Shown here piece after piece: positions 12,262 to 51,712 of a stretch of 64,000 nt of DNA (position 1 is its first letter; each line of letters opens with the position of its first letter). Made by a program: the position numbers and the translations under genes. The stretch comes from an uncultured Chloroflexia bacterium. GTDB taxonomy: Bacteria; Chloroflexota; Chloroflexia; Thermomicrobiales; UBA6265. A model generated the notes under the pieces. The model saw only the letters and a program-made list of their open reading frames with translations, made no database searches and was not told the origin of the DNA. Location: the NCBI GenBank assembly GCA_963849635.1, contig CAWKIA010000025.1:196194-260193 (forward strand), given 5' to 3'.

Positions 12262-13428
<1,167 letters not shown>

Positions 13429-13534: not shown

Positions 13535-14386
13535 TTAGCCGGCGGCCTTCTCAAGGGCCCGCCGGGTAGCGACACCTACCAGGTGAGCCCGGTATTCAGC
13601 GGAAGCGTAGTGGTCGCCGTTGATCTCAAGGCCATCGGCGGCGACGGCGGCCGCGGCGCCGATACCGTCCGCATCGAGCTTTTTGCCAGCCAAGGCATTC
13701 TCGGCGGCGGTCGCCCGCGTTGCCTTGGTCGTGCAGCCAGTGACGGCGATCCGGGCGGAGGAGACAGTGCCATCGCCACCGACGGTGACCGCGACAGCGA
13801 CGCCGACGACGGCGTAGCCGGAGGCAGGGTGCTCCATCTTCTCGTATGCGGCCTTGACGCTCCCTTGCTTCGGGACGTGAACCTCGGTGATGACTTCCTC
13901 CGGGTTAAGCGAGGTCGTCAGGAGGTCGACGAAGAGATCATCGGCGGCGATCGTCCGCTCACCGGAGCCGCCGACTGCCTTGACCGACCCGTTCAAGACC
14001 AGGAAGACGGCAGTCAGGTCGGCGGCGGGATCCGAGTGGGCAAGCGAGCCACCCAGGGTTCCTCGCGCGCGGACCTGCATGTCACCGACGACGGCCGCCG
14101 ACGACGCCAGCAGCGGCACCGCCGACGCTAGCTCGGCAGAGTTCTGGAGCTGGCGGTAGGTCGTCATCGCACCGATCACGACGTTGTCGCCGCTGACATT
14201 GACGCCTGTCAGGCCCGGCACTCGGCCCAGATCGACCAGCGCACTCGGCGCGGCCAGGCGCATTTTCATCGCCGGGAGCAGGGAATGCCCTCCTGCGATC
14301 AGTTTGGCATCTGGGTCGGCTGCCAGGAGGGCGACCGCTTCCTGTACGCTGCCGGGACGGTGGTAGGCGAATTGACCTGGGAACAC
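13535..14386 (-). CDS. coxM: Molybdopterin dehydrogenase FAD-binding (medium) subunit, CoxM-like
   Basis: The FAD_binding_5 pattern AGGHSLLP...GTLGGSLAHSDPAADL, plus the C-terminal CO_deh_flav domain. Confidence 0.8.
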   Translation of the reverse strand: MFPGQFAYHRPGSVQEAVALLAADPDAKLIAGGHSLLPAMKMRLAAPSALVDLGRVPGLTGVNVSGDNVVIGAMTTYRQLQNSAELASAVPLLASSAAVVGDMQVRARGTLGGSLAHSDPAADLTAVFLVLNGSVKAVGGSGERTIAADDLFVDLLTTSLNPEEVITEVHVPKQGSVKAAYEKMEHPASGYAVVGVAVAVTVGGDGTVSSARIAVTGCTTKATRATAAENALAGKKLDADGIGAAAAVAADGLEINGDHYASAEYRAHLVGVATRRALEKAAG

Positions 14387-14431: not shown

Positions 14432-16852
14432 TTAGTCGGCGGCCATCGGCGTGGCTTGATTGGCGGAGCGTAGCGCTTGCCAGACACGCTCCGGGGTCAG
14501 GGGCATATCGATGTGGCGGATGCCAAGATGGGAGACAGCGTCGATGACCGCGTTGGCGACGGCCGGGGTCGAGGCGATGGTGCCAGCTTCGCCCGCGCCC
14601 TTGACGCCCATCGGGTTGGTCGGCGACGGCGTCACGGTGCGGTCGAGTTCGTAGACCGGGACCATGTGCGCCTTCGGAATGGCGTAGTCGCTCATCGTGC
14701 CGGTGAGAAGCTGGCCATTGTCATCGTAGACGGCACCTTCGTACAGCGCCTGGGCCAGGCCCTGGGCGATGCCGCCGTGGATCTGGCCGTCGACGATCAG
14801 CGGGTTGACCACGTTGCCGACGTCATCGACCGCGACGTAGCGGATGAGCTCGACTGTACCCGTATCCTGGTCGACCTCGACAACGCAGATGTGGGTGCCG
14901 AAGGGGAAGGTGCAGTTGGGCGGATCGTAGTAGGTCGTCTCGTCGAGGAATGGCTCCATACCCTCGGGCAGGTCGTAGGCAACGTGGGAGGCCAGAGCGA
15001 TCTCGCCGATGGTCTTCTGGCTGGCCGGGCTGCCCTTGACGTAGGCCTTGCCGTCCTCCCAGACGATGTCATCCGCGGCAGCCTCGAGCATGTGGGCGGC
15101 GAGGAGCTTGGCCTTCTCCTTGACCTTCGCCACGCTCTTGTAGATGGCGGTGCCACCGACCGCCATTGAGCGGCTGCCGTAGGAGCCGAAGCCGAACGGC
15201 GTGCCGAGCGTATCGGAATGCTTGATCTGGATGTCGTCGTAGGGCACGCCGAGCTCGTCGGCAACGAGCTGGGCGAAGGTCGTCTCGTGGCCCTGGCCGT
15301 GGGGCAGGCTGCCGGTCGTCACGACGACCTTGCCGGTGAGGTGGACCTTGACGTTGGCGCTTTCCCAGAGGCCGGCGCCCCAGCCTTCGCCGGGGAGACC
15401 GATCCACTTCGACGGCGCGACGCCGCAGACCTCGACGTAGGTCGAGAGGCCGACGCCAAGCAGCTTCTTCGCCCCGTCCGAGCGGCGCTTCGCCTGATCG
15501 GCCTTGAGATCCTCGTAGCCGACGATCTGGAGCGCCTTGTCGAGAGCGGGCTCGTAGTTGCCGCTGTCGTAGGGCAGCATGCCGATGCCGGTGTCGAACG
15601 GGAAGTCGGCCGGCTGGATGAAGTTGCGGCGGCGAACGTCGGCCGGATCGACGCCGGTGGCGTCGGCGACCAGGTCGCAGACCCGCTCGATGACGAAGGC
15701 CGCTTCCGGCCGGCCGGCGCCGCGGTAGGCATCGACCATCGCGGTGTTGGTGTAGGTGCCGACGACATCGACGCGGATGTTCGGGATCTTGTAGCAGCCC
15801 GCGATCATCCGGCCGTAGAGCGTCGTCGGGATACCGGCGGCGATGGTGGAGAAGTAGGCGCCGATGTTGGCCCAGGTCTTCACCTTCAGCGCGGTGATCT
15901 TGCCGTCCTTGGTGGCGCCGATTTCGACGTCGGTGATGTGGTCGCGGCCGTGGGTGGTGGTCAGGTAGTTCTCCGACCGATCCTCGACGAATTTGACGGG
16001 GCGACCGCCGAGCTTCTTCGACAGGGCGAGCACCAGAGCCATGTCGTAGTAGAGGAAGATCTTGCAGCCGAAGCCGCCGCCGACATCCGGGGAGATGACC
16101 CGAATGTTCTGTTCTGGCACGCCCAGCACGAACGCCGCCAGCAGCAGCCGGTGGACGTGCGGCGCCTGGGAGGTGGCCCAAAGCGTGTACTGATCGGTGC
16201 CCGGATCCCAGGAGCCGATCGACCCGCTGGTCTCCATCGGGGTCGGAATCAGGCGCTGGTTGATCAGGTGCTGCTCGAGCCGGACCTCGGAGGAGGCCAG
16301 AGCGGCGTCGACCTCAGCGGTCTCCTTGCCGCAGGACCATTCGAGGACGATGTTGTTCGGCGCGTTCTCGTGGAGTTGCGGCGCGCCGGGCTCGGTCGCC
16401 TTCTTGGCGTCGACGACGGCGGGTAGCTCCTCGTACTGGACGTCGATCGCTTCGAGGGCATCGACGGCCTGCTCGAGGCGCTTTGCCACCACGACGGCGA
16501 TGCCGTCGCCGACCTGGTGGACCTCGCCGACCTGGAGCACGCGGGGAGTGTTGACGTTGTTCTGGACCTTGGCCGCCTGCCACGCCGCCGGCAGGGGGTT
16601 GACGTCCATGAAGTCGTCGCCGGTGAAGACGCCGATCACGCCGGGCATGGATTTCGCCCGGCTGGTGTCGATGCTCAAGATATTGGCGTGGGCGTATGGT
16701 GACCGCAGGATGGCCGCGTGGGTCATGCCCGCGAGCTTGACGTCATCGAGGAAGTTCCCGTTGCCTGAGATCAGCCGCGGGTCCTCTCGCCGTTTCAATG
16801 CCTGGCCGACCATCTTCCGCGGCTTTTCAACCGCATCGAGGGCTTCGCTCAT
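14432..16852 (-). CDS. coxL: Xanthine-dehydrogenase-family molybdopterin-binding large subunit, form II CoxL-like (AYRGAGR)
   Basis: Active-site loop MVDAYRGAGRPEAAF is the form II motif, not the AYXCSFR motif of true CO dehydrogenases. GGGFG motif present. RBS GGGAGG lies 6 nt upstream of the Met at 16852; the ORF itself extends to 16942. Confidence 0.85.
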   Translation of the reverse strand: MSEALDAVEKPRKMVGQALKRREDPRLISGNGNFLDDVKLAGMTHAAILRSPYAHANILSIDTSRAKSMPGVIGVFTGDDFMDVNPLPAAWQAAKVQNNVNTPRVLQVGEVHQVGDGIAVVVAKRLEQAVDALEAIDVQYEELPAVVDAKKATEPGAPQLHENAPNNIVLEWSCGKETAEVDAALASSEVRLEQHLINQRLIPTPMETSGSIGSWDPGTDQYTLWATSQAPHVHRLLLAAFVLGVPEQNIRVISPDVGGGFGCKIFLYYDMALVLALSKKLGGRPVKFVEDRSENYLTTTHGRDHITDVEIGATKDGKITALKVKTWANIGAYFSTIAAGIPTTLYGRMIAGCYKIPNIRVDVVGTYTNTAMVDAYRGAGRPEAAFVIERVCDLVADATGVDPADVRRRNFIQPADFPFDTGIGMLPYDSGNYEPALDKALQIVGYEDLKADQAKRRSDGAKKLLGVGLSTYVEVCGVAPSKWIGLPGEGWGAGLWESANVKVHLTGKVVVTTGSLPHGQGHETTFAQLVADELGVPYDDIQIKHSDTLGTPFGFGSYGSRSMAVGGTAIYKSVAKVKEKAKLLAAHMLEAAADDIVWEDGKAYVKGSPASQKTIGEIALASHVAYDLPEGMEPFLDETTYYDPPNCTFPFGTHICVVEVDQDTGTVELIRYVAVDDVGNVVNPLIVDGQIHGGIAQGLAQALYEGAVYDDNGQLLTGTMSDYAIPKAHMVPVYELDRTVTPSPTNPMGVKGAGEAGTIASTPAVANAVIDAVSHLGIRHIDMPLTPERVWQALRSANQATPMAAD

Positions 16853-16878: not shown

Positions 16879-16945
16879 CGAGACGTGAGACGTGAGACGC
16901 GAGACGTGAGTACTTCGTCGTTGCTCCCGTCTCACGTCTCACGTC

Positions 16946-16950
<5 letters not shown>
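16879..16950. repeat. Hairpin-forming tandem heptamer repeat in the coxS-coxL spacer
   Basis: CGAGACGTGAGACGTGAGACGCGAGACGTGAG, a 17-nt loop, then CCCGTCTCACGTCTCACGTCTCACG. The arms are reverse complements, giving a stem of about 22 bp. Confidence 0.7.
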
Positions 16951-17437
<487 letters not shown>

Positions 17438-17722: not shown

Positions 17723-17766
17723 AATCCTGCCGGGCGAGTATCGGACTTCGTCATTCCCCACCCCGG

Positions 17767-17912
17767 CGTCATCCTGAGCGTGCGAAGGATCTTGGCGCGT
17801 CAGCGCCTTCGTGCTCGTTGGGGAAGACGGGCATCACGTATTCCGAGTGGCGTCGGGGTCGGCGGCAAAGGCCGCAGAGCGGCCAGGATCCTTCGCTCCG
17901 CTCAGGATGACG
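17767..17912. mobile_element. MITE-like element, copy A (about 146 bp, 25-bp terminal inverted repeats CGTCATCCTGAGCGtgCGAAGGATC)
   Basis: The left arm at 17767-17791 and the right arm at 17887-17912 are near-perfect reverse complements. The ends are shared with copy B at 46942-47089. Confidence 0.6.
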
Positions 17913-17985
17913 ATGGTGGCGGGGCGCCTTCCCAGCGTTGGGCAGTCGATGGCCTAGTGGGGCTGCCGTGGCATGGTGCGCTGCG

Positions 17986-34323: not shown

Positions 34324-36108
34324 ATGGCGGTTGCCAGTCCTCCCAATCGCGGCACCATCGCCCCGCTGGCCGCGCACTCGGGTTCGCTGGGGCGGGCAAT
34401 CTTCGAGGCTATCGCCCGGGGTGAGCAGCCGACACTCACCGGGTCCGAGATCACCTGCGCCAGCCTTGTCGCCGAAGGGGTGACGACCGTCTTCGGCTAC
34501 CCCGGCGGCGCCGTAATCCCGCTCTACGATGCCCTGCCGCGATTCGATCTGCATCATGTCCTGGTTCGGTTCGAGCAGTGGGCCGCACTCGCCGCCGATG
34601 GCTATGCTCGCGCGACCGGCAAGGTCGGCGTTTGCATTGCCACCTCCGGCCCTGGCGCCACCAATCTCGTCACCGGCCTCGCCAACAGCCAACTCGACTC
34701 CGTGCCGATCGTCGCCATCACCGGCCAGGTGACGCAGGCCCTCATCGGCCGGGATGCCTTCCAAGAGGTCGACATCACCGGGATCACCTTGCCGGTGACG
34801 AAGCACAACTATCTCGTGCAGACGGCGGCGGATATCGCCCCCACGATCAAAGAGGCATTCCACCTGGCCGCCTCCGGTCGGCCGGGACCGGTCCTGGTCG
34901 ATATTCCCAAGAGCGTCTTCCAAGCAAACGCACCGTTCTACTACCCAGAGAGTGTCTCCCGCCGCGGCTACCAGCCATCTCACACGCCGAATATGCGCCA
35001 GGTCCGGCTGGCGGCCGAGGCGATCAACTCAGCCAAGAAGCCGCTCATCATGGCGGGGCACGGTATTTTGCTCTCCGGTGGCACGGAGGAGTTTCGACAG
35101 TTCGTCGAGCGGACCGGCATGCCGGTGATCTTTACCTTGCTGGGCCTCGGCTGCTTCCCGGAGGATCATCCGCTCGCCCTGGGCCTGATGGGCATGCACG
35201 GGCACAAGCATGTCAATGACGCGCTCGAAGAGTGCGATCTGCTCGTGAATATTGGCGCCCGCTTTGACGACCGGGCAACCGGGCGAATTGACGGCTTTGC
35301 TCCACATGCGAAGGTGGTCCACGTCGACATCGATCCAGCCGAAATCGGCAAGAACGTAGTGACCGCCGTGCCGGTCGTTGGGGATGCGCGCGAGGCATTG
35401 CGCCTCCTGCTGGGCGAGGTCCAGGAGCGCCGCCACGATTCGTGGATGGGCTGGATCGATTCCCGGCGGAATCGGGTGCTCGAAGCCGCCCTGGAGGACC
35501 TGCCGACGACACCCGAGCCGTACGCAATCGTCAAAGCCATCGCGAAGGCAACCAACGGCGAGGCGATCGTTGCCACCGATGTCGGCCAGCACCAGATGTG
35601 GACCGCCCAGCACTTCGGATTCAATCACCCTGACCGAAATATCACCTCCGGCGGCCTAGGCACGATGGGCTTTGGCCTGCCGGCCGCCATCGGCGCCAAG
35701 CTCGGCCGGCCTGACCTGGAGGTCTGGGCGATCGTCGGTGACGGCGGCATCCAGATGTCGCTGAACGAGTTCGCGACCGCCGTTCAGGAAGGGCTTGACA
35801 TCAATATCGCGATCATCAACAACGGCTACCTGGGCATGGTCCGCCAGTGGCAAGACCTCTTCCACGGAAAGAACTACTCCGAAGTCCAGATCTCCGCACC
35901 GGACTTCGTCAAGCTCGCTGAGGCCTATGGCATGACGGGGATCAGGGTCACGACCGACGCCGAGATTGTGCCGGCCATCGAAAAGGCGCGGAGCATCCCC
36001 GGTCCGGTCCTGGTCGAGTTCGTGATTACCCCGGAAGCCAATGTCTACCCGATGGTGCCGCCAGGCGGAAGCAACTCCGAGATGTGGCACGAGCGGTTCG
36101 AGGAGTAG
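34324..36108 (+). CDS. ilvB: Acetolactate synthase large subunit
   Basis: 594 aa. TPP enzyme with GYPGGAVIPLYDAL..., GVCIATSGPGATNLVTGLANS, and the C-terminal GDGGIQMSLNEFAT. Confidence 0.9.
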   Translation: MAVASPPNRGTIAPLAAHSGSLGRAIFEAIARGEQPTLTGSEITCASLVAEGVTTVFGYPGGAVIPLYDALPRFDLHHVLVRFEQWAALAADGYARATGKVGVCIATSGPGATNLVTGLANSQLDSVPIVAITGQVTQALIGRDAFQEVDITGITLPVTKHNYLVQTAADIAPTIKEAFHLAASGRPGPVLVDIPKSVFQANAPFYYPESVSRRGYQPSHTPNMRQVRLAAEAINSAKKPLIMAGHGILLSGGTEEFRQFVERTGMPVIFTLLGLGCFPEDHPLALGLMGMHGHKHVNDALEECDLLVNIGARFDDRATGRIDGFAPHAKVVHVDIDPAEIGKNVVTAVPVVGDAREALRLLLGEVQERRHDSWMGWIDSRRNRVLEAALEDLPTTPEPYAIVKAIAKATNGEAIVATDVGQHQMWTAQHFGFNHPDRNITSGGLGTMGFGLPAAIGAKLGRPDLEVWAIVGDGGIQMSLNEFATAVQEGLDINIAIINNGYLGMVRQWQDLFHGKNYSEVQISAPDFVKLAEAYGMTGIRVTTDAEIVPAIEKARSIPGPVLVEFVITPEANVYPMVPPGGSNSEMWHERFEE

Positions 36109-36115
36109 ACGGAGT

Positions 36116-36180
36116 TTCAAGTTCCAAGAAGTGAGGCGCAAGTCACTTGGACCTTGAGACTTGGAACTTGAGACTTGGAA
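36116..36180. repeat. Hairpin-forming tandem repeat in the ilvB-ilvN spacer (GAGACTTGGAACTT twice, plus inverted AGTTCCAAG)
   Basis: TCAAGTTCCAAG ... CTTGGACCTTGAGACTTGGAACTTGAGACTTGGAACTTGA. Confidence 0.6.
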
Positions 36181-36205
36181 CTTGATTCTCGTCTAGGAGT
36201 TTGAG

Positions 36206-36796
36206 ATGAGTACGTCCCGTCATACGCTCGTCGTTCAGGTCGAAGATCAACCCGGGGTGCTCAACCGGGTGGTCTCCTTGATGCGGCGCCGCTCCTTCAA
36301 TATCGACTCGATCACGGTCGGGCACTCGGAGATTCCGGGCGTTTCTCGAATGACGATCGTGGTGGATGGAGAAGCGAACGACGTCGAACAGGTCGGGAAG
36401 CAGCTCTATAAGCTGATGGAAGTCCTGAAGGTCACCGACCTGGACGACTCCAACTGCCTGGCGCGCGAGCTCGCACTGATCAAGGTGGCAGCTAAAGCTC
36501 AGCACCGGGGCGAGATCCTGCAGATTGCCCAGATTTATGATGCCCGCGTCGTCGACGCGAGCCCAAGCACGCTGCTGCTGGAGATGACCGGCACCGAAGA
36601 CAAGATCGATTCTCTGCTGGCCATGCTGCGCCAATTTGGCATCCGGGAGTTGGTGCGCACCGGCCGGATCGCGATGGTCCGGGGTGCCTCGACCGTCAGC
36701 GCCAAGCCGGCGACGGCCACGTCGCCGAGCGTCAGCAATGGCACCAACGGCCGCTCGGCGGAGATTCCAGTGGAAATCGTATCGATTGCAACTTGA
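36206..36796 (+). CDS. ilvN: Acetolactate synthase small (regulatory) subunit
   Basis: ACT domain HTLVVQVEDQPGVLNRVVSLMRRRSFNIDSITVG. Confidence 0.9.
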   Translation: MSTSRHTLVVQVEDQPGVLNRVVSLMRRRSFNIDSITVGHSEIPGVSRMTIVVDGEANDVEQVGKQLYKLMEVLKVTDLDDSNCLARELALIKVAAKAQHRGEILQIAQIYDARVVDASPSTLLLEMTGTEDKIDSLLAMLRQFGIRELVRTGRIAMVRGASTVSAKPATATSPSVSNGTNGRSAEIPVEIVSIAT

Positions 36797-36964
36797 CCGG
36801 TTAGCGATCACGGAACGCCGCCACACCGGGCGGCGTTCCTCTTTACTTCGACTTTTGGCCAGGAACGCCGCTGTTCCCAATCGTCCACCGGTCAGGCGAC
36901 TATAGCGCGCTTCAGCACAAAATCATTGACGTGTGGTGAGATGGGCCCGCATGCGCGGGCGTAG

Positions 36965-38026
<1,062 letters not shown>

Positions 38027-38105
38027 CCGCGGCGGTCGTTGGGGTGGCGCGCGGCAGTCAGCCCGCGCCACTTCTCCCGCCGATCTGAACAAGGAGCAGG
38101 AACCC

Positions 38106-39671
38106 GTGAGCGAATCGACCGGCCAGCCTGACGTAGCCAATCGCGACCCGCGGAACCGCGTCATCATCTTCGACACGACGCTTCGTGATGGAGAGCAGTC
38201 CCCTGGCGCGACCCTTACCGCCGACGAAAAACTCGAAGTAGCCGACGCGCTGGTAGCTCTCGGCGTTGATGTGATTGAAGCGGGATTTCCAGCCGCATCT
38301 CCCGGCGACTTCGAGGCGGTCCGCGCGATCGCCCAGCGGTCCAAGGGTGTGGTCATCGCCGGGCTTGCCCGGGCGGTCGAATCGGACATCGAGCGGGCGG
38401 CCCAGGCGGTCCGGGTGGCGGAAGCCGCCCGGATTCACACGTTCCTCTCCTCCTCTGACATCCACCTCCAGCACCAGATGCGAATGAGCCGCGAGCAGGC
38501 GCTGGACCGAGTGACGGCCTGCGTCTCCTACGCGCGGTCATTCGTCTCGGACGTCGAGTTTTCCGCGATGGACTCGACTCGCTCCGACTGGGACTATCTG
38601 GCGGAAATGTTCAAGCGTGCCGTCGAGGCGGGCGCGACCACGCTCAACGTGCCGGACACCGTCGGATACACGACGCCGGACGAGTATTCGGCTCTGATGC
38701 GCCACCTCCGGGAACGTGTCCCTGGCATCGAGAATTGCATCATCTCCGTCCACTGCCACGACGACCTGGGCATGGCAACCGCGAATACTCTGGCGGCAGT
38801 TCAGGCGGGCGCCCGTCAGGTCGAAGTGACGATCAACGGGATCGGCGAGCGGGCAGGCAACACCTCCCTGGAGGAGGTGGTGATGGCGATCCGCACCCGA
38901 CCCGACACCTACGGCGGCACCTGGACTGGCGTCATGGCTGAGCGACTGGTGCCGACGAGCCGGATCGTCAGCACGCTGACCGGAGTGGTCGTGCAGCCGA
39001 ACAAGGCGATCGTCGGGGCAAATGCGTTTGCGCACGAGTCCGGTATCCACCAGGACGGCGTGCTCAAGGAGCGCACAACCTACGAGATCATGGACCCCGC
39101 CGATGTCGGTTGGGAAGGAACGAAGCTCGTCCTGGGCAAGCACTCCGGCAGGAAGGGCTTCAAGGCGACCCTGGACGACCTCGGTATCCGACTGGCCGAA
39201 GATCAGGTGAACGAGGTCTATAACCGCTTCCTGGTGCTCGCCGACCGGAAGAAGACCGTCACCGCCGCCGACTTGATCGCCCTCGTCAGTGATGAGCTCG
39301 ATACTCCCGGCGACGGCTTTACCCTCAATCGCTGGAACGCCAGCCTTGGCAGCGCCGGACCTGCTACCGCCAGCGTGATTATTACCCGCGGCGATGGCCA
39401 GTTCACCGGCGACGGCGAGGGCAACGGCCCGGTCGATGCCCTCTTCAAGGCGATCGAGGCCGCCACCGGAATTGAGAACGAGCTGATCGCCTACCACGTC
39501 GAAGCTGTGACGCCGGGCGAGGACGCCCAGGGTCAGGTTCAGGTTCGGATCAAGGTCGGGGACACGGTCTACACCGGCCACGGCTTAGCCACCGACATCG
39601 TCGAGGCTAGCGCCCGCGGCTATCTGGCCGCGCTGAGCAAAGTTCAGATGAAGGAAAAGGCGGCGGTGTAA
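38106..39671 (+). CDS. leuA: 2-isopropylmalate synthase
   Basis: FDTTLRDGEQSPGA, and HCHDDLGMATANTLAAVQAGA. GTG start is preceded by AAGGAG. 521 aa with the LeuA dimerisation/regulatory domain. Confidence 0.85.
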   Translation: MSESTGQPDVANRDPRNRVIIFDTTLRDGEQSPGATLTADEKLEVADALVALGVDVIEAGFPAASPGDFEAVRAIAQRSKGVVIAGLARAVESDIERAAQAVRVAEAARIHTFLSSSDIHLQHQMRMSREQALDRVTACVSYARSFVSDVEFSAMDSTRSDWDYLAEMFKRAVEAGATTLNVPDTVGYTTPDEYSALMRHLRERVPGIENCIISVHCHDDLGMATANTLAAVQAGARQVEVTINGIGERAGNTSLEEVVMAIRTRPDTYGGTWTGVMAERLVPTSRIVSTLTGVVVQPNKAIVGANAFAHESGIHQDGVLKERTTYEIMDPADVGWEGTKLVLGKHSGRKGFKATLDDLGIRLAEDQVNEVYNRFLVLADRKKTVTAADLIALVSDELDTPGDGFTLNRWNASLGSAGPATASVIITRGDGQFTGDGEGNGPVDALFKAIEAATGIENELIAYHVEAVTPGEDAQGQVQVRIKVGDTVYTGHGLATDIVEASARGYLAALSKVQMKEKAAV

Positions 39672-39792
39672 GGGGAGAGGACCTCACCTCCTACCTCCTC
39701 TCTCCCCTAGCCCACTGCGGTGGAGAGGGGCGTCAGGTGGCGCCGTTTCCGGGATCGCCGTTCTCCCCACTATGTAGTCAATTGAAGGAACC

Positions 39793-41202
39793 ATGATGGC
39801 CGAGCGTCCACGAACATTGAGCGACAAGATCTGGGAGCGCCACGTCATTCATTCGGCGCCGGGGGAGCCCGATCTCCTCTTTATCGACCTCCACCTCATC
39901 CACGAGGTGACCACGCCCCAGGCGTTCGAGGGGTTGCGAATGGCGGGGCGCAAGGTGCGCCGCCCAGATCTCACCGTCGCCACCGCGGACCACAATGTGC
40001 CGACGGTCGGGATTCACCTGCCCGTCGCGGACCCGATCTCGGCCACCCAGCTCTCCCACCTGACGCGCAACTGCGAGGAGTTCGGGATCAAGCTCTACCC
40101 GATGGGCGATCCCGGTCAGGGCATCGTGCACGTGATTGGGCCGGAGCTCGGCCTGACCCAGCCGGGGATGACGATCGTCTGCGGCGACAGTCACACCTCC
40201 ACCCACGGCGCCTTCGGAGCGCTCGCGTTCGGGATTGGAACGAGCGAGGTCGAGCACGTGCTCGCCACCCAAAGCCTGCCGCAACGGCGGCCGGGAACAA
40301 TGGCGATCACGGTCGAAGGCGAACTGCCGCCAGGGTCGTCGGCAAAGGACATCATCCTGGCGATCATTGGCCGGATCGGCACCGGCGGAGGAATCGGCTC
40401 GATCATCGAGTACCGCGGCTCGGCCATCCGGGCGCTGACGATGGAAGGCCGGATGACGGTCTGCAACATGACGATCGAGGCTGGAGCAAAGGCAGGCATG
40501 ATCGCTCCAGACGACACGACCTTCGCCTACATCGAGGGCAAGCCTCATGCGCCGAAAGGCGTCGAGTGGGAGCGCGCACTGGACGACTGGCACTCACTGC
40601 GGACCGATGACGACGCCAAGTTCGACGCCGAGATCGTCTTCGACGCCCACGAGATCCGGCCCCATGTCTCCTGGGGCACCAATCCCGGTCAGGTTGTCCC
40701 GATCGACGATGTTGTTCCTGACCCGAAAGAGATGACCGACCCCAGCTCTCGAGACGCCGCCACCCGAGCACTGGCCTACATGGAGCTGACACCGGGCACG
40801 CCAATGCGCGATATCCCGGTCGACACGGTCTTCATTGGCTCGTGCACCAATAGCAGGATCGAAGACCTGCGAATCGCCGCCTCTGTCCTCGAGGGCCGCA
40901 AGGTGCGCGAGGGGATGCGGGCGATGGTCGTGCCAGGATCGATGCGGGTCAAGTCCCAGGCGGAAGCCGAAGGGCTAGACCGCATCTTCGAGGCGGCGGG
41001 GTTTGAGTGGCGATCTGCCGGGTGCTCGATGTGCCTCGGCATGAACCCGGATCAACTCAAGCCGAAAGAGCGTTGCGCCTCAACCAGCAATCGCAACTTC
41101 GAAGGTCGTCAGGGTCGCGGCAGCCGCACCCATCTCGTCTCGCCCGCGATTGCCGCGGCAACAGCGGTCGTCGGCTCATTCGCGACGCCCGCCGACCTGT
41201 AA
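39793..41202 (+). CDS. leuC: 3-isopropylmalate dehydratase large subunit
   Basis: Aconitase-family motifs GIVHVIGPE..., [23 protein letters not shown], and [10 protein letters not shown]. Confidence 0.9.
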
Positions 41203-46880: not shown

Positions 46881-46914
46881 ATTCGGCGTTCGGCGTTCGG
46901 CGTTCGGCGTTCGA
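46881..46914. repeat. Tandem heptamer repeat (TTCGGCG, four copies) just upstream of greA
   Basis: TTCGGCGTTCGGCGTTCGGCGTTCGGCGTTCGAG. Confidence 0.8.
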
Positions 46915-46941: not shown

Positions 46942-47089
46942 TGTCATCCCGAGCTTGTCGAGGGATCTAGAGAGAGGCGGCGTTCCGATGTGCCGCCGTG
47001 TGCACGAGCGCGATCGCGTTTTCTCTGAGGCCGGGGCTTCGTCAGGGCATCGTTCCCTTCGAGATCCCTCGACAAGCTCGGGATGACAG
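46942..47089. mobile_element. MITE-like element, copy B (about 148 bp, perfect 27-bp terminal inverted repeat TGTCATCCCGAGCTTGTCGAGGGATCT)
   Basis: The left arm at 46942-46968 is the exact reverse complement of 47062-47088. Same GTCATCCYGAGC...GGATC ends as copy A. Confidence 0.6.
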
Positions 47090-47188
47090 GTGGCAGGCTG
47101 GCTCGGGATGATCGGCTGACCGCTGACGGCTGAACGCTGGCGGCGGCTGTTGGCCAAGAGCGGACGCTTGACAGCGGAAAGCTGACGG

Positions 47189-47638
47189 TTATTTCACTTC
47201 GAATGTCGCTTCGATCTCGACGGCAATCTGGCCGGGGAGGGCGACGAAGCCGACGGCGGAGCGGGTGTGGCGCCCGGCGTCGCCGAAGACCTCGACCAGG
47301 AGGTCGGAGCAGCCGTTGATAACCTTGGGCTGATCGCCGAAATCGGGCGCCGAATTCACCATTCCGAGCACTTTCACGACCCGCGTTACCCGGTCCAGCG
47401 TGCCGAGCGCGTCCTTGACCGTCGCGATGATCTGCAGTCCAACCTCGCGCGCGACGGCGTAGCCCTCCAAGATGGTCAGGTCGGACCCGACCTTACCGGT
47501 CGGAGCGGATCCACTCGGGCCGGTCCCTGAGATGAAGAGGAGGTTGCCGGTCTGGACGTAGCGGACGTAGGTCGCGATCGGTTTGACCGGCGCGGGCAAG
47601 TCAATTCCGAGTTCGGTAATTCTGGCATCGAACGACAT
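47189..47638 (-). CDS. RidA/YjgF-family reactive-intermediate deaminase
   Basis: PAPVKPIATYV...GQIAVEIEATFEV are typical RidA motifs. Confidence 0.85.
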   Translation of the reverse strand: MSFDARITELGIDLPAPVKPIATYVRYVQTGNLLFISGTGPSGSAPTGKVGSDLTILEGYAVAREVGLQIIATVKDALGTLDRVTRVVKVLGMVNSAPDFGDQPKVINGCSDLLVEVFGDAGRHTRSAVGFVALPGQIAVEIEATFEVK

Positions 47639-47728
47639 ATCTTCCTCCTAACGACAGAAACGAATATCTGGCCCGGCGACTACGGATGCGCGGACCTGCG
47701 GAGCTATTGGCGGAATTCCGGTGGTGAC

Positions 47729-48938
47729 TTAGCCCTTCCCGAGGACGCGCTCCATGCGCACCAACGTCTCTGGCGAGCAGTTCATCGGAGGTGGCAAACG
47801 AGAGGCGGACGTAGCCCTCACCGGCGTCGCCAAAGGCGTTGCCGGGGACGAGGGCGACGTGGGCTTCCTTCAGCATGTGGTCGGAAAACTCCATCGCGGA
47901 CATTCCTGTGCCGCGGATGTCCGGAAAGGCATAGAACGCGCCCTCGACACGGGGGCAGGTGATCCCTTTCAGGGCATCGAGACCGTCGCAGACCATGATC
48001 CGGCGACGATCCCAGGCGGCGACCATCTCGCCGATGAACTCCTGCGGGCCGGTCAGGGCGGCGACTCCGCCCGCCTGGGCGAACGAGGTCGCACAGGTGA
48101 CGGAGTGGCTGTGGACCTTGGCGATTTGATCGATGTAGGCCCGAGGTCCGGCCACATAGCCGAGGCGCCAGCCAGTCATAGCGTATGCCTTGGAGAGACC
48201 GTTGAAGGTCAAGGTCCGGTCGAGCATCCCCGGCAACGAGGCGATGGTCGTGTGAGTGTGACCGTCGTAGAGGATTTTCTCGTACATGTCGTCGGCGAAG
48301 ACGAGCAGGTCGTGCTTGGTGGCGACATCGGCGATGGCGCGTAATCTCGTCGTTCGACATGACATGGCCGGTTGGGTTGCACGGAGAGTTGAAGAGGATG
48401 CCGCGTGTGGCGGGAGTCACGGCGGACTCCAGCAGTTCCCGCGTGACCTGCCAGTTCTGGTCCCCAGAGAGGGTCACTGGAATTGCACGGCCACCAGCCA
48501 CCTCGATCATTGGAACGTAAGAAACCCAGGCCGGTTCCAATACGAGGATATCGACCCCCGGCTCGGCCAGGGTCAACATCGCCTGGAAGAGCGCCGCCTT
48601 GCCGCCCGGAGTGACGATGATCTCGGTTGCAGGGTCGTACTCGACGCCATTGTCGTTCTTGAGCTTGGCGGCGATGGCTTTGCGCAGGGCAGGGGTGCCG
48701 GCGGAGGCGACGTAGTGGGTATCGCCGGAGTTCATGGCGTCCGCGGCGGCCTGGCGGATGTGGGCCGGGGTGATAAAGTCGGATCGCCGCCACCGAGATC
48801 GATGACATCGATACCCTGAGCCTTGAGCTGGCGCGCCTTGTCGGAAACCGCCAGCGTCGGCGAGGGAGCCAGGTCGCGTACTCGGGATGCAACGAAGTCG
48901 TCCGCCCGTCGACGTGCGGCGGTTCCACTGGTCTGCAT
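47729..48938 (-). CDS. Class I/II (aspartate) aminotransferase, broken into at least four frame segments
   Basis: N-terminus LAPSPTLAVSDKARQLKAQGIDVIDLGGGDP in ORF 48732..49007. Then HYVASAGTPALRKAIAAKL...NSPCNPTGHVMS in ORF 47818..48735. Then LVFADDMYEKILYDG...TFNGLSKAYAMTGWRLGY (PLP Lys) in ORF 47601..48365. The true C-terminus ETLVRMERVLGKG* is in yet another frame. Confidence 0.75.
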
Positions 48939-49439
48939 CGATCTTCCTTTCGTGGTGGTCGCGTCGTGCTGCATGCCGTCACGAACGACGGACCGTGTCC
49001 GCACCATTTTAGCCGGACTGGGCGCCTCCTGGATTTAATCCGCCGAAAGCCACTTTGCGCCAGAATCGTTCCGACAGCAGGTGACGCATGCCTCCTAGAT
49101 CTGGATGAATCGCACAACGGGAAGGGAAACATCGGGACCAACAGCCGAGACGCCGGTTATCAGCCCCACGTGATCAATGACATGAATTGGGGAAAGGGAA
49201 ACCAGATCGACGGCAACGTGGCCGAGGTCAGCGGCCAGGGATTTGGGTTCTTCACTCACATCCCGGAGGCCTTCGCCAACACCGTGCTGTGCTCGAACGA
49301 GGTTTCGGGAGCCCAGTTCGGGTTTGCCAATGTCAACTGCGCGGAAAAGGCCGCCGAGATGGCGCGGGCGGCTTGAGTCTGCCGCGCGATTGTTCCATAC
49401 TCTCCCGGTTGGCACTCCCCCTACCCAATTGCTAATTCA

Positions 49440-49565: not shown

Positions 49566-49889
49566 ATGGCAGCGGAAACAAACGGAACGGCAGTGGCCTC
49601 GAAGCTCACCCCGCTCGGTGACCGCGTGGTCATCAAGCCGGCCGGCCGCGAGGAGATGACCAAGAGCGGCATCGTTCTCCCGGACACGGCCAAGGAGAAG
49701 CCGCAGCGCGGCACCATCATCGCCGCCGGCCAGGGCCGCCGCGATGACGACGGCGAGCGGATCCCGCTCGACGTCAGCGTCGGGGACCAGGTCCTCTTCG
49801 CCAAGTACGCCGGGACCGAGTTCAAGCTCGAAGACGAGGATCTTCTCATCCTTTCCGAGAAGGACATCCTGGCTGTCATTTCCGAGTAA
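49566..49889 (+). CDS. groES: Co-chaperonin GroES
   Basis: [12 protein letters not shown]...[37 protein letters not shown]. Confidence 0.9.
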
Positions 49890-49994
49890 CGAGACGTGAG
49901 CCGTGAGCCGTGAGAACGGACGAAAGTCCCCTCGGTTTCAGTGGCTCGCGACTCTCTTCTCGTCACTCACGTCTCACGTCTCAATTCTCACGAC
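49890..49994. repeat. Hairpin-forming heptamer repeats in the groES-groEL spacer (GAGACGTGAGCCGTGAGCCGTGAG ... CTCACGTCTCACGTCTCA)
   Basis: Arms at 49890-49919 and 49959-49994 are imperfect reverse complements built from the same CGTGAG/GTGAGAC units seen in the coxS-coxL spacer. Confidence 0.65.
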
Positions 49995-49997
49995 TAA

Positions 49998-51648
<1,651 letters not shown>

Positions 51649-51674
51649 TCCAGCTAATACCGCGTTCGATAGTC

Positions 51675-51712
51675 GAAGGGGGCTGGAGCATTTCCAGCCC
51701 CCTTCGTTTTTT
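51675..51712 (+). terminator. Rho-independent terminator after groEL
   Basis: GAAGGGGGCTGGA-gcattt-TCCAGCCCCCTTC followed by GTTTTTT. Confidence 0.8.

Follow-up and report, generated by a model that had tools for sequence, protein, structure and literature searches.

The window analyzed here, a 64,000-nucleotide stretch from an uncultured Chloroflexia bacterium, includes tandem arrays of heptanucleotide units in its coxS-coxL, groES-groEL and ilvB-ilvN spacers, and these arrays are new members of a known and poorly understood class of heptanucleotide repeats. They are probably inverted heptanucleotide simple sequence repeat (SSR) arrays, long SSRs of the STRR type, made by slippage and tolerated behind stop codons, with effects on the mRNA that are incidental or limited to the strain level. 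For the most part they do not amount to a regulatory design conserved in the cox, groESL or ilvBN operons. Their placement behind stop codons and the polarity of their arms are general across phyla, in the statistics given below, and the arrays themselves are labile between relatives, the cox hairpin being the one of the three that is shared, in this case with a genome 88% identical. The hairpins that a first-pass annotation of the window had pointed out in the three spacers are real, and the cox and groES-groEL spacers have the GTGAGAC unit in common.

Tandem Repeats Finder located two arrays in the coxS-coxL spacer, which read on the plus strand as (GAGACGT)x4.4 at 16880-16910 and (CTCACGT)x3.9 at 16924-16950. 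The resulting arms, 16881-16910 and 16924-16953, are 30 nt each, 90% complementary and separated by a gap of 13 nt. The features of this locus, in the order of transcription, are:

16946-17437, minus strand: coxS, small Fe-S subunit.
16924-16953, minus strand: 5' arm of the cox hairpin on the transcript, (GUGAGAC)n, the first unit of which supplies the coxS stop.
16911-16923, minus strand: loop of the cox hairpin, with another sequence in the orthologous locus L005.
16880-16910, minus strand: 3' arm of the cox hairpin on the transcript, (GUCUCAC)n with one GCG variant.
16864-16860, minus strand: coxL ribosome binding site (RBS), GGAGG.
16852-16850, minus strand: coxL ATG.
14432-16852, minus strand: coxL, large molybdopterin subunit.
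13535-14386, minus strand: gene of the FAD (medium) subunit.

The fold of the sense RNA (minus strand) has 23 contiguous pairs, extensions beyond them and an energy of -67.8 kcal/mol, compared with -43.3 +/- 3.8 kcal/mol for shuffled sequences (z -6.45), and none of 200 shuffles matches it. At the variant unit (GCG) of the 3' arm the sense RNA has a G.U pair where the antisense RNA has a C.A mismatch, and the antisense fold is slightly weaker for this reason. The TGA that ends coxS (16948-16946, minus strand) belongs to the first heptamer unit, a point overlooked in the first-pass annotation. When up to two mismatches were allowed, the 13-mer GAGACGTGAGACG had 11 matches in the window against 3.6 +/- 1.8 expected, a number reached by none of 100 shuffles, and 10 of the 11 are located in the cox and groES spacers. 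An NCBIfam search confirmed the identities of the genes around the three spacers with a caveat for coxL, whose score of 756 bits is below the CO-dehydrogenase equivalog cut-off of 991 bits; the enzyme can therefore be considered a CoxSLM-type molybdenum hydroxylase of uncertain substrate. The small and medium subunits scored best against glyceraldehyde dehydrogenase subunits, likewise under the cut-off. A look-up of the exact CoxS sequence found no such protein on record.

In the groES-groEL spacer the arrays are (GAGCCGT)x3.4 and (CTCACGT)x3.9, as determined by Tandem Repeats Finder:

49891-49914, plus strand: 5' array (GAGCCGT)x3.4, beginning 1 nt past the groES stop TAA (49887-49889).
49966-49992, plus strand: 3' array (CTCACGT)x3.9, upstream of the RBS AGGAGG (50000-50005) and the groEL GTG (50013).

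Complementarity between these arms reaches only 76%, and their fold is marginal, with a z of -1.86 and 10 of 200 shuffles as good. Some genes in this part of the window and elsewhere are broken: groEL (50013-51648) lies in two overlapping frames, residues 1-130 and then 128-526, with the change of frame near 50395-50410; the aminotransferase upstream of groES (47601-49141) is split into several ORFs; and the P450 at 12262-12951 is a fragment. All three look like indel errors of a long-read assembly rather than pseudogenes, and exact repeat copy numbers may consequently be slightly off. These frameshifted genes are also what could lead one to dismiss the arrays themselves as an assembly artefact of repeat-rich reads. 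We consider this extremely improbable, as the same architecture is found in independent Illumina and long-read assemblies and in isolates such as Lutibacter agarilyticus DSM 29150 and Cognataquiflexum rubidum, and the cox hairpin recurs in a second metagenome-assembled genome (MAG).

The ilvB-ilvN spacer includes (ACTTGGAACTTGAG)x2.9 at 36145-36185 and an inverted AGTTTCAAGTTCCAAG at 36113-36128, and its fold has a z of -4.67:

36113-36128, plus strand: 5' arm of the hairpin, AGTTTCAAGTTCCAAG, starting 5 nt past the ilvB stop TAG (36106-36108).
36145-36185, plus strand: 3' array (ACTTGGA ACTTGAG)x2.9, which can pair with the 5' arm in two registers.
36196-36199, plus strand: ilvN RBS, GGAG.
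36206, plus strand: ilvN ATG.

Unlike the cox and groES unit, the repeat unit here is a 14-mer composed of two heptamers. The annotation had called this repeat related to that of the other two spacers; one of the two alternating heptamers matches at 6 of 7 bases, and the arm order is opposite: the repeat- and stop-bearing arm comes second, the minority order. A terminator-like hairpin at 36812-36839, just past ilvN in the 201-nt ilvN-ilvC spacer, has 11 pairs followed by a weak T-rich tail, and thus ilvBN and ilvC may be partly uncoupled.

The annotation had taken the genes on either side of each spacer to be co-transcribed, and our scans agree with this, as the promoter and terminator consensus searches found no site in the cox, groES-groEL or ilvB-ilvN spacers. 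A known Rfam family (riboswitch, leader or sRNA) was rejected because no covariance model matched at the spacers: at the gathering score the Rfam search gave no match, and at E <= 0.1 its sole match was at 51636-51712, outside the three spacers. This match, to the sRNA BjrC68, is sub-threshold at 27.2 bits (gathering score 39; E 0.006); it is located right after the groEL stop and is probably only a terminator-like hairpin. In the fetched loci the arrays are located between the ORFs that were called, and all four period-7 sites of the window are intergenic as well, the fourth being in the RidA-greA spacer, where two arrays were found:

46882-46913, minus strand: fourth heptamer array, (TTCGGCG)x4.6, perfect copies, single arm, directly upstream of the greA RBS and start.
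47113-47144, minus strand: degenerate heptamer/14-mer array of the CGGCTGA type.

The array at 46882-46913 has no stop codon on either strand. A fourth heptamer hairpin formed by these two arrays was considered and rejected, as the predicted fold does not pair one with the other. The window also includes a second dispersed palindrome unrelated to the heptamers, with arms GTCATCC[C/T]GAGC...GCTC[A/G]GGATGAC of up to 30 bp that are 97% complementary; its copies are at 17756-17923, upstream of coxS, and at 46942-47088, in the RidA-greA spacer, and it is also found in the ilvB-ilvN spacer of a relative (L255, about 600-650, and the start of L256).

The three spacers were followed in related genomes with different results. 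The cox hairpin is present in L005, from a Chloroflexia MAG with cox genes 88% identical to those of the window, with equal arm lengths and differences mostly in the loop; it has been kept beyond what neutral drift would lead one to expect, and selection or concerted evolution may therefore act on this copy at least. L118, a contig encoding an identical GroES, has only one unit left on each side, GAGACG-N6-CGTCTC, in a spacer that is 68 nt shorter than that of the window and differs in its inner sequence too. In nine loci with GroES proteins 86-94% identical the groES-groEL array is absent, and the spacers, of 55-83 nt, have unrelated sequence. The ilvB-ilvN array is identical in L001, a metagenome contig with an identical IlvN, and in other relatives the spacer is reduced to 10 nt, includes (GTCGGCG)x3 and an unrelated palindrome, or opens with (CTACCGA)x2. 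L001 is 98.9% identical at the DNA level to positions 36118-40277 of the window, and in it ilvN is followed directly by a leuA-like gene, without the ilvC that intervenes in the window.

These comparisons bear on the proposal that the elements are devices for the differential expression of the three operons, which was the reading of the first-pass annotation and which is not supported, as the groES-groEL and ilvB-ilvN arrays are missing or replaced by other repeats in close relatives. The more general form of this idea, that they are dedicated intercistronic hairpins selected as RNase III or RNase E sites, 3' stabilizers or decouplers that set the ratios of the operon products, is in our judgment unlikely. 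The strong stems placed exactly between a stop codon and the next RBS, in spacers devoid of promoter or terminator, are what such a device would look like; the conservation of the cox hairpin in L005 and its sole arm variant, paired as G.U in the sense RNA and mismatched in the antisense, are in its favor as well. Against it, the same elements occur between unrelated genes and between convergent genes, the latter accounting for a quarter of the array-bearing spacers in the loci listed. The genes flanking the arrays elsewhere include glnA/pgm, smc/ftsY, those of an Fe-S/NrfD protein and a molybdopterin oxidoreductase, those of a metallo-beta-lactamase-fold protein and ffh, and radA with a glycerate kinase gene; we found no functional theme among these unrelated housekeeping genes in the fetched loci. 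Nor does the sense strand have a stability advantage over the 19 hairpins located in co-directional spacers, the sense RNA being the better folder in 9 and the antisense in 10, so that there is no wobble signature of selection on RNA. The numbers of units in the two arms are nearly independent (r = 0.19 among the hairpins listed).

The first-pass annotation had also suggested that the shared unit belongs to a dispersed repeat family, and this family turned out to reach far beyond the present genome. A collection of species-representative genomes has, among the matches listed, more than 116 stretches with an exact 18-mer that equals 2.6 GTGAGAC units, where about 17 would be expected by chance for a random 18-mer in 596 Gb (an estimate). 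The hosts belong to many phyla and groups, including Bacteroidota (Chitinophagaceae, Saprospiraceae, Flavobacteriia), Gemmatimonadota, Chloroflexota, Acidimicrobiia, Verrucomicrobiota, Planctomycetota and others, with G+C contents ranging from 0.32 to 0.70. Several MAGs have more than one locus, for example four in one Gemmatimonadales MAG and two in a Chloroflexia MAG. A scan of metagenomes for (GTGANNN)x3 followed by GTGA yielded at least 120 loci with about 45 different NNN among the matches listed, and (GTGANNN)n arrays are present in phage contigs too. GTGAGAC as the dominant unit of the GTGA type was rejected, as GAC is the majority NNN in 1 of the 120 metagenome loci listed; with so many variants, a single sequence spread horizontally need not be assumed. 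Some elements are nested (L008, L040, L058 and L012), with outer (CGTGAGA)n arms around inner arms of another heptamer, such as (GTGAATA)n or (AGTAAGA)n, in mirrored order; in L004, also nested, the order of the heptamers is not mirrored.

The annotation had likened the family to REP/BIME elements, a comparison that stands for position and fails for membership. Like REPs, the arrays are extragenic palindromes located at gene 3' ends, in co-directional or convergent spacers and rarely in divergent ones, and can form stable stem-loops on the mRNA. REPs have fixed arms of 20-40 nt with a GTAG-type 5' motif, are linked to RAYT transposases, number in the hundreds in a genome and form species-specific families, whereas the window arms are tandem arrays of variable length with units that recur across phyla, and no GTAG flanks the arms in the three window spacers or in the fetched loci inspected. 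We also find it very unlikely that the arrays derive from a REP/BIME- or MITE-like mobile palindrome spread by a transposase of the RAYT/TnpA-REP type and later expanded by slippage. Such an origin would fit palindromic, extragenic elements at gene 3' ends with several copies per genome, as in the Gemmatimonadales and Chloroflexia MAGs mentioned above, and so would the minimal palindrome retained by the close relative L118. However, a conserved GTAG-type motif is missing, the units differ between loci, as seen in the NNN variants listed, the arms are not copies of one element, and the exact unit is rare in phage contigs, with 3 loci among the matches listed.

The position of the arrays relative to genes was determined in the loci listed by the collection scans, with genes called by a simple heuristic based on ORFs and GC3. 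In the loci listed, array-bearing spacers were co-directional in 69 cases, convergent in 25 and divergent in 7, compared with 311, 79 and 97, respectively, for the other spacers of the same loci (153, 47 and 76 when only those of at least 60 nt are counted). Divergent spacers thus make up 7% of those bearing arrays and 20-28% of the others, a depletion, and 93% of the array-bearing spacers in the loci listed contain the 3' end of a gene. According to these counts the arrays accompany the 3' ends of genes and avoid divergent spacers, those that bear promoters. A strand bias was also evident: a sense ORF of at least 100 codons ended within -21 to +60 nt upstream of 156 of 307 arrays read in the GTGA direction and of 52 of 298 read in the TCAC direction (51% versus 17%). 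For 56 ORFs that extend into an array, the array supplies the stop codon, located in the first, second or third unit in 28, 12 and 16 of them. Heptamers other than GTGA with stops on only one strand have a similar tendency (27/58 versus 15/62). Because 7 is coprime to 3, the sense strand of a GTGA array has a TGA in all three frames, and an array may therefore end the upstream ORF by itself, which is what happens at coxS. The strand and position bias on which the first-pass annotation had staked its proposal of a repeat family is, in summary, present in the sampled loci.

The association with gene 3' ends could also be explained if the arrays were terminators or attenuators without a U-tract, in which the pyrimidine-rich 3' arm would form a weak RNA:DNA hybrid and the polymerase would be paused or released. 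The enrichment of convergent and depletion of divergent spacers, the gene 3' end present in nearly all of the array-bearing spacers, and a C/U-rich arm that is almost always transcribed second are in agreement with this possibility, which would account for the polarity as well. Termination by hairpins lacking a U-tract is contested. The window stems share with intrinsic terminators a G+C-containing hairpin downstream of a stop codon and differ from them in having no U-tract, in being much longer (23 to more than 30 bp) and in being located inside operons that need downstream expression. Of the related hairpins, only 8 of 77 have a T-rich tail, those of the three window spacers have none, a separate canonical terminator is found past the array in some loci (L003), and termination within groESL or coxSLM would reduce essential downstream subunits. 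On balance this explanation appears doubtful.

The two-armed elements follow an almost invariant order. The GTGA arm comes first in ratios of 25:0, 29:1, 74:3 (Tandem Repeats Finder pairs) and 35:0 (phage contigs), in overlapping samples and among the matches listed, and the control cores GGTA, GATG and GTAG together gave 13:0. Of 249 inverted heptamer pairs listed, the first arm has more G than C in 204 and less in 19. Since an inverted repeat reads alike on both strands, this polarity is intrinsic, and only a process that goes from 5' to 3' can impose an arm order. The cores were compared in phage contigs (L261-L380 versus L381-L673), a comparison that informs about architecture only and not about abundance: the two-arm architecture is found in 35 of 184 complexes listed for GTGA (19%; phage contigs), and in 4 of 129 for GGTA, 2 of 140 for GATG and 7 of 163 for GTAG (1-4%), and for none of the four cores does the C-rich arm come first among the matches listed. 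The excess of inverted pairs in units with the GTGA core hints at something sequence-specific. Whether the rule is that stops come first or that the purine- or G-rich arm comes first is addressed by discordant pairs that are too few (7 versus 3), and the stop-less pairs are divided 11 versus 7.

Slippage alone cannot account for such a near-universal arm polarity, and some directional process must select on it. The causes may include the immediate supply of stops in three frames, the hiding of a C-rich, Rho-loading stretch by having it transcribed second, or a weak pyrimidine-rich RNA:DNA hybrid that would favor pausing or release. The arrays could also be considered selected 'insulators', in which the G-rich arm with three-frame stops comes first and would end stray translation, the C-rich stretch that attracts Rho would be hidden in the hairpin, and a stem length adjusted in steps of 7 nt would set operon polarity and mRNA stability in each strain; this is a rather unlikely reading. 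A unit that keeps strictly to 7 nt, with its GTGA core conserved and its NNN free to vary, is, in turn, what one would expect of site arrays for a putative oligomeric RNA-binding protein that would read a GAG-N4 or UGA-N4 triplet every 7 nt and compete with the hairpin. HutP, which reads UAG-N4 triplets, would be its analog. The GTGA core is also over-represented, in 40 of 106 unlinked arrays of the same genomes against an estimated 5-6% for random heptamers, a comparison in which some of the 106 are not truly unlinked, as Tandem Repeats Finder renamed mixed seed arrays. We found no candidate protein, phyla with very different sets of RNA-binding proteins carry the arrays and many other heptamer units behave alike, all of which makes a dedicated binding protein highly improbable.

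Arrays of this kind have been described before. Heptanucleotide units are the most abundant class of long SSRs in many bacteria, where they are intergenic, and polymerase slippage has been proposed as their source, according to the account of Mrazek et al. (2007) given in two later papers (PMC4679880, PMC4692102). The described sets include STRR in Calothrix and Nostoc, GGGAATC in Xanthomonas and TAACTGA in Beggiatoaceae, cyanobacteria and Bacteroidetes (MacGregor 2015, PMC4679880; Rehm et al. 2015, PMC4692102). Some of the Xanthomonas GGGAATC arrays form inverted pairs able to fold into stem-loops (PMC4692102), and the forward orientation of TAACTGA has stops in every frame (PMC4679880). The function of heptanucleotide repeats is still described as not worked out (bioRxiv 10.1101/2022.06.06.494920).

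By the long-SSR measure of about 3 or more tandem copies, the window has period-7 arrays of 3.4-4.6 copies at 16880, 16924, 49891, 49966 and 46882, and a period-14 array of 2.9 copies at 36145. The window arrays resemble STRR, GGGAATC and TAACTGA in the 7-nt unit repeated head to tail in 2 to tens of copies, in being almost always intergenic and apparently variable between close relatives, in a unit that recurs in distant phyla, in some inverted pairs that form stem-loops and in forward-strand stops in all frames. They differ from them in the unit, GTGAGAC (GTGANNN), in the host, a Thermomicrobiales-like member of the Chloroflexota, and in the frequency of the inverted two-arm form. TAACTGA arrays, in addition, are located mainly just upstream of start codons, unlike the window arrays, which are behind stops. 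In the literature on heptanucleotide repeats that we searched, neither the polarity rule nor arrays abutting a stop codon were found reported, and a search for exact (GTGAGAC)2 strings found no paper. Mazel and colleagues reportedly described in 1990 the cyanobacterial STRR1-3 units CCCCAGT, TTGGTCA and CAACAGT in heterocystous cyanobacteria. Membership in STRR1-3 in the strict sense was rejected for the window, where the units are GTGAGAC, GTGAGCC, ACTTGGA/ACTTGAG and TTCGGCG and the closest proteins are from Chloroflexota/Thermomicrobiales.

The reading that we favor, slippage-made arrays tolerated behind stop codons, would work as follows. Units would be gained and lost through slipped-strand mispairing, and the arms would stay complementary because they derive from each other, by intrastrand template switching or inversion-duplication. 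The arrays would persist where they are harmless, which may be the case right behind a stop codon, and the sense orientation may be tolerated beside an ORF because translation stops in every frame within six codons at any copy number. In the mRNA of an operon this would leave a stem-loop that extends from the upstream stop codon, or just after it, to 20-30 nt before the next RBS. REPs stabilize the upstream mRNA, and ribosomes stall at those located up to about 15 nt from a stop codon. The stem would act in a similar way, hindering the terminating ribosome, which must melt the base of the stem, and it would block 3'-to-5' exonucleases or offer a substrate to RNase III and loosen translational coupling, with a strength that would shift in 7-nt steps. 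Such effects on the mRNA would be by-products, at most a strain-level tuning.

The window places heptanucleotide repeats in a little-studied phylum, in hairpin form and within well-known operons, and the cross-phylum samples yield three rules: the arrays are near gene 3' ends, the strand that bears the stops is the sense strand behind the stop codon, and the arm rich in G precedes the other. Should this polarity stem from selection on transcripts, the arrays would provide a widespread, evolvable means of post-transcriptional tuning. If it does not, they would mark mutational processes and be a warning against reading strong intercistronic hairpins as regulators.
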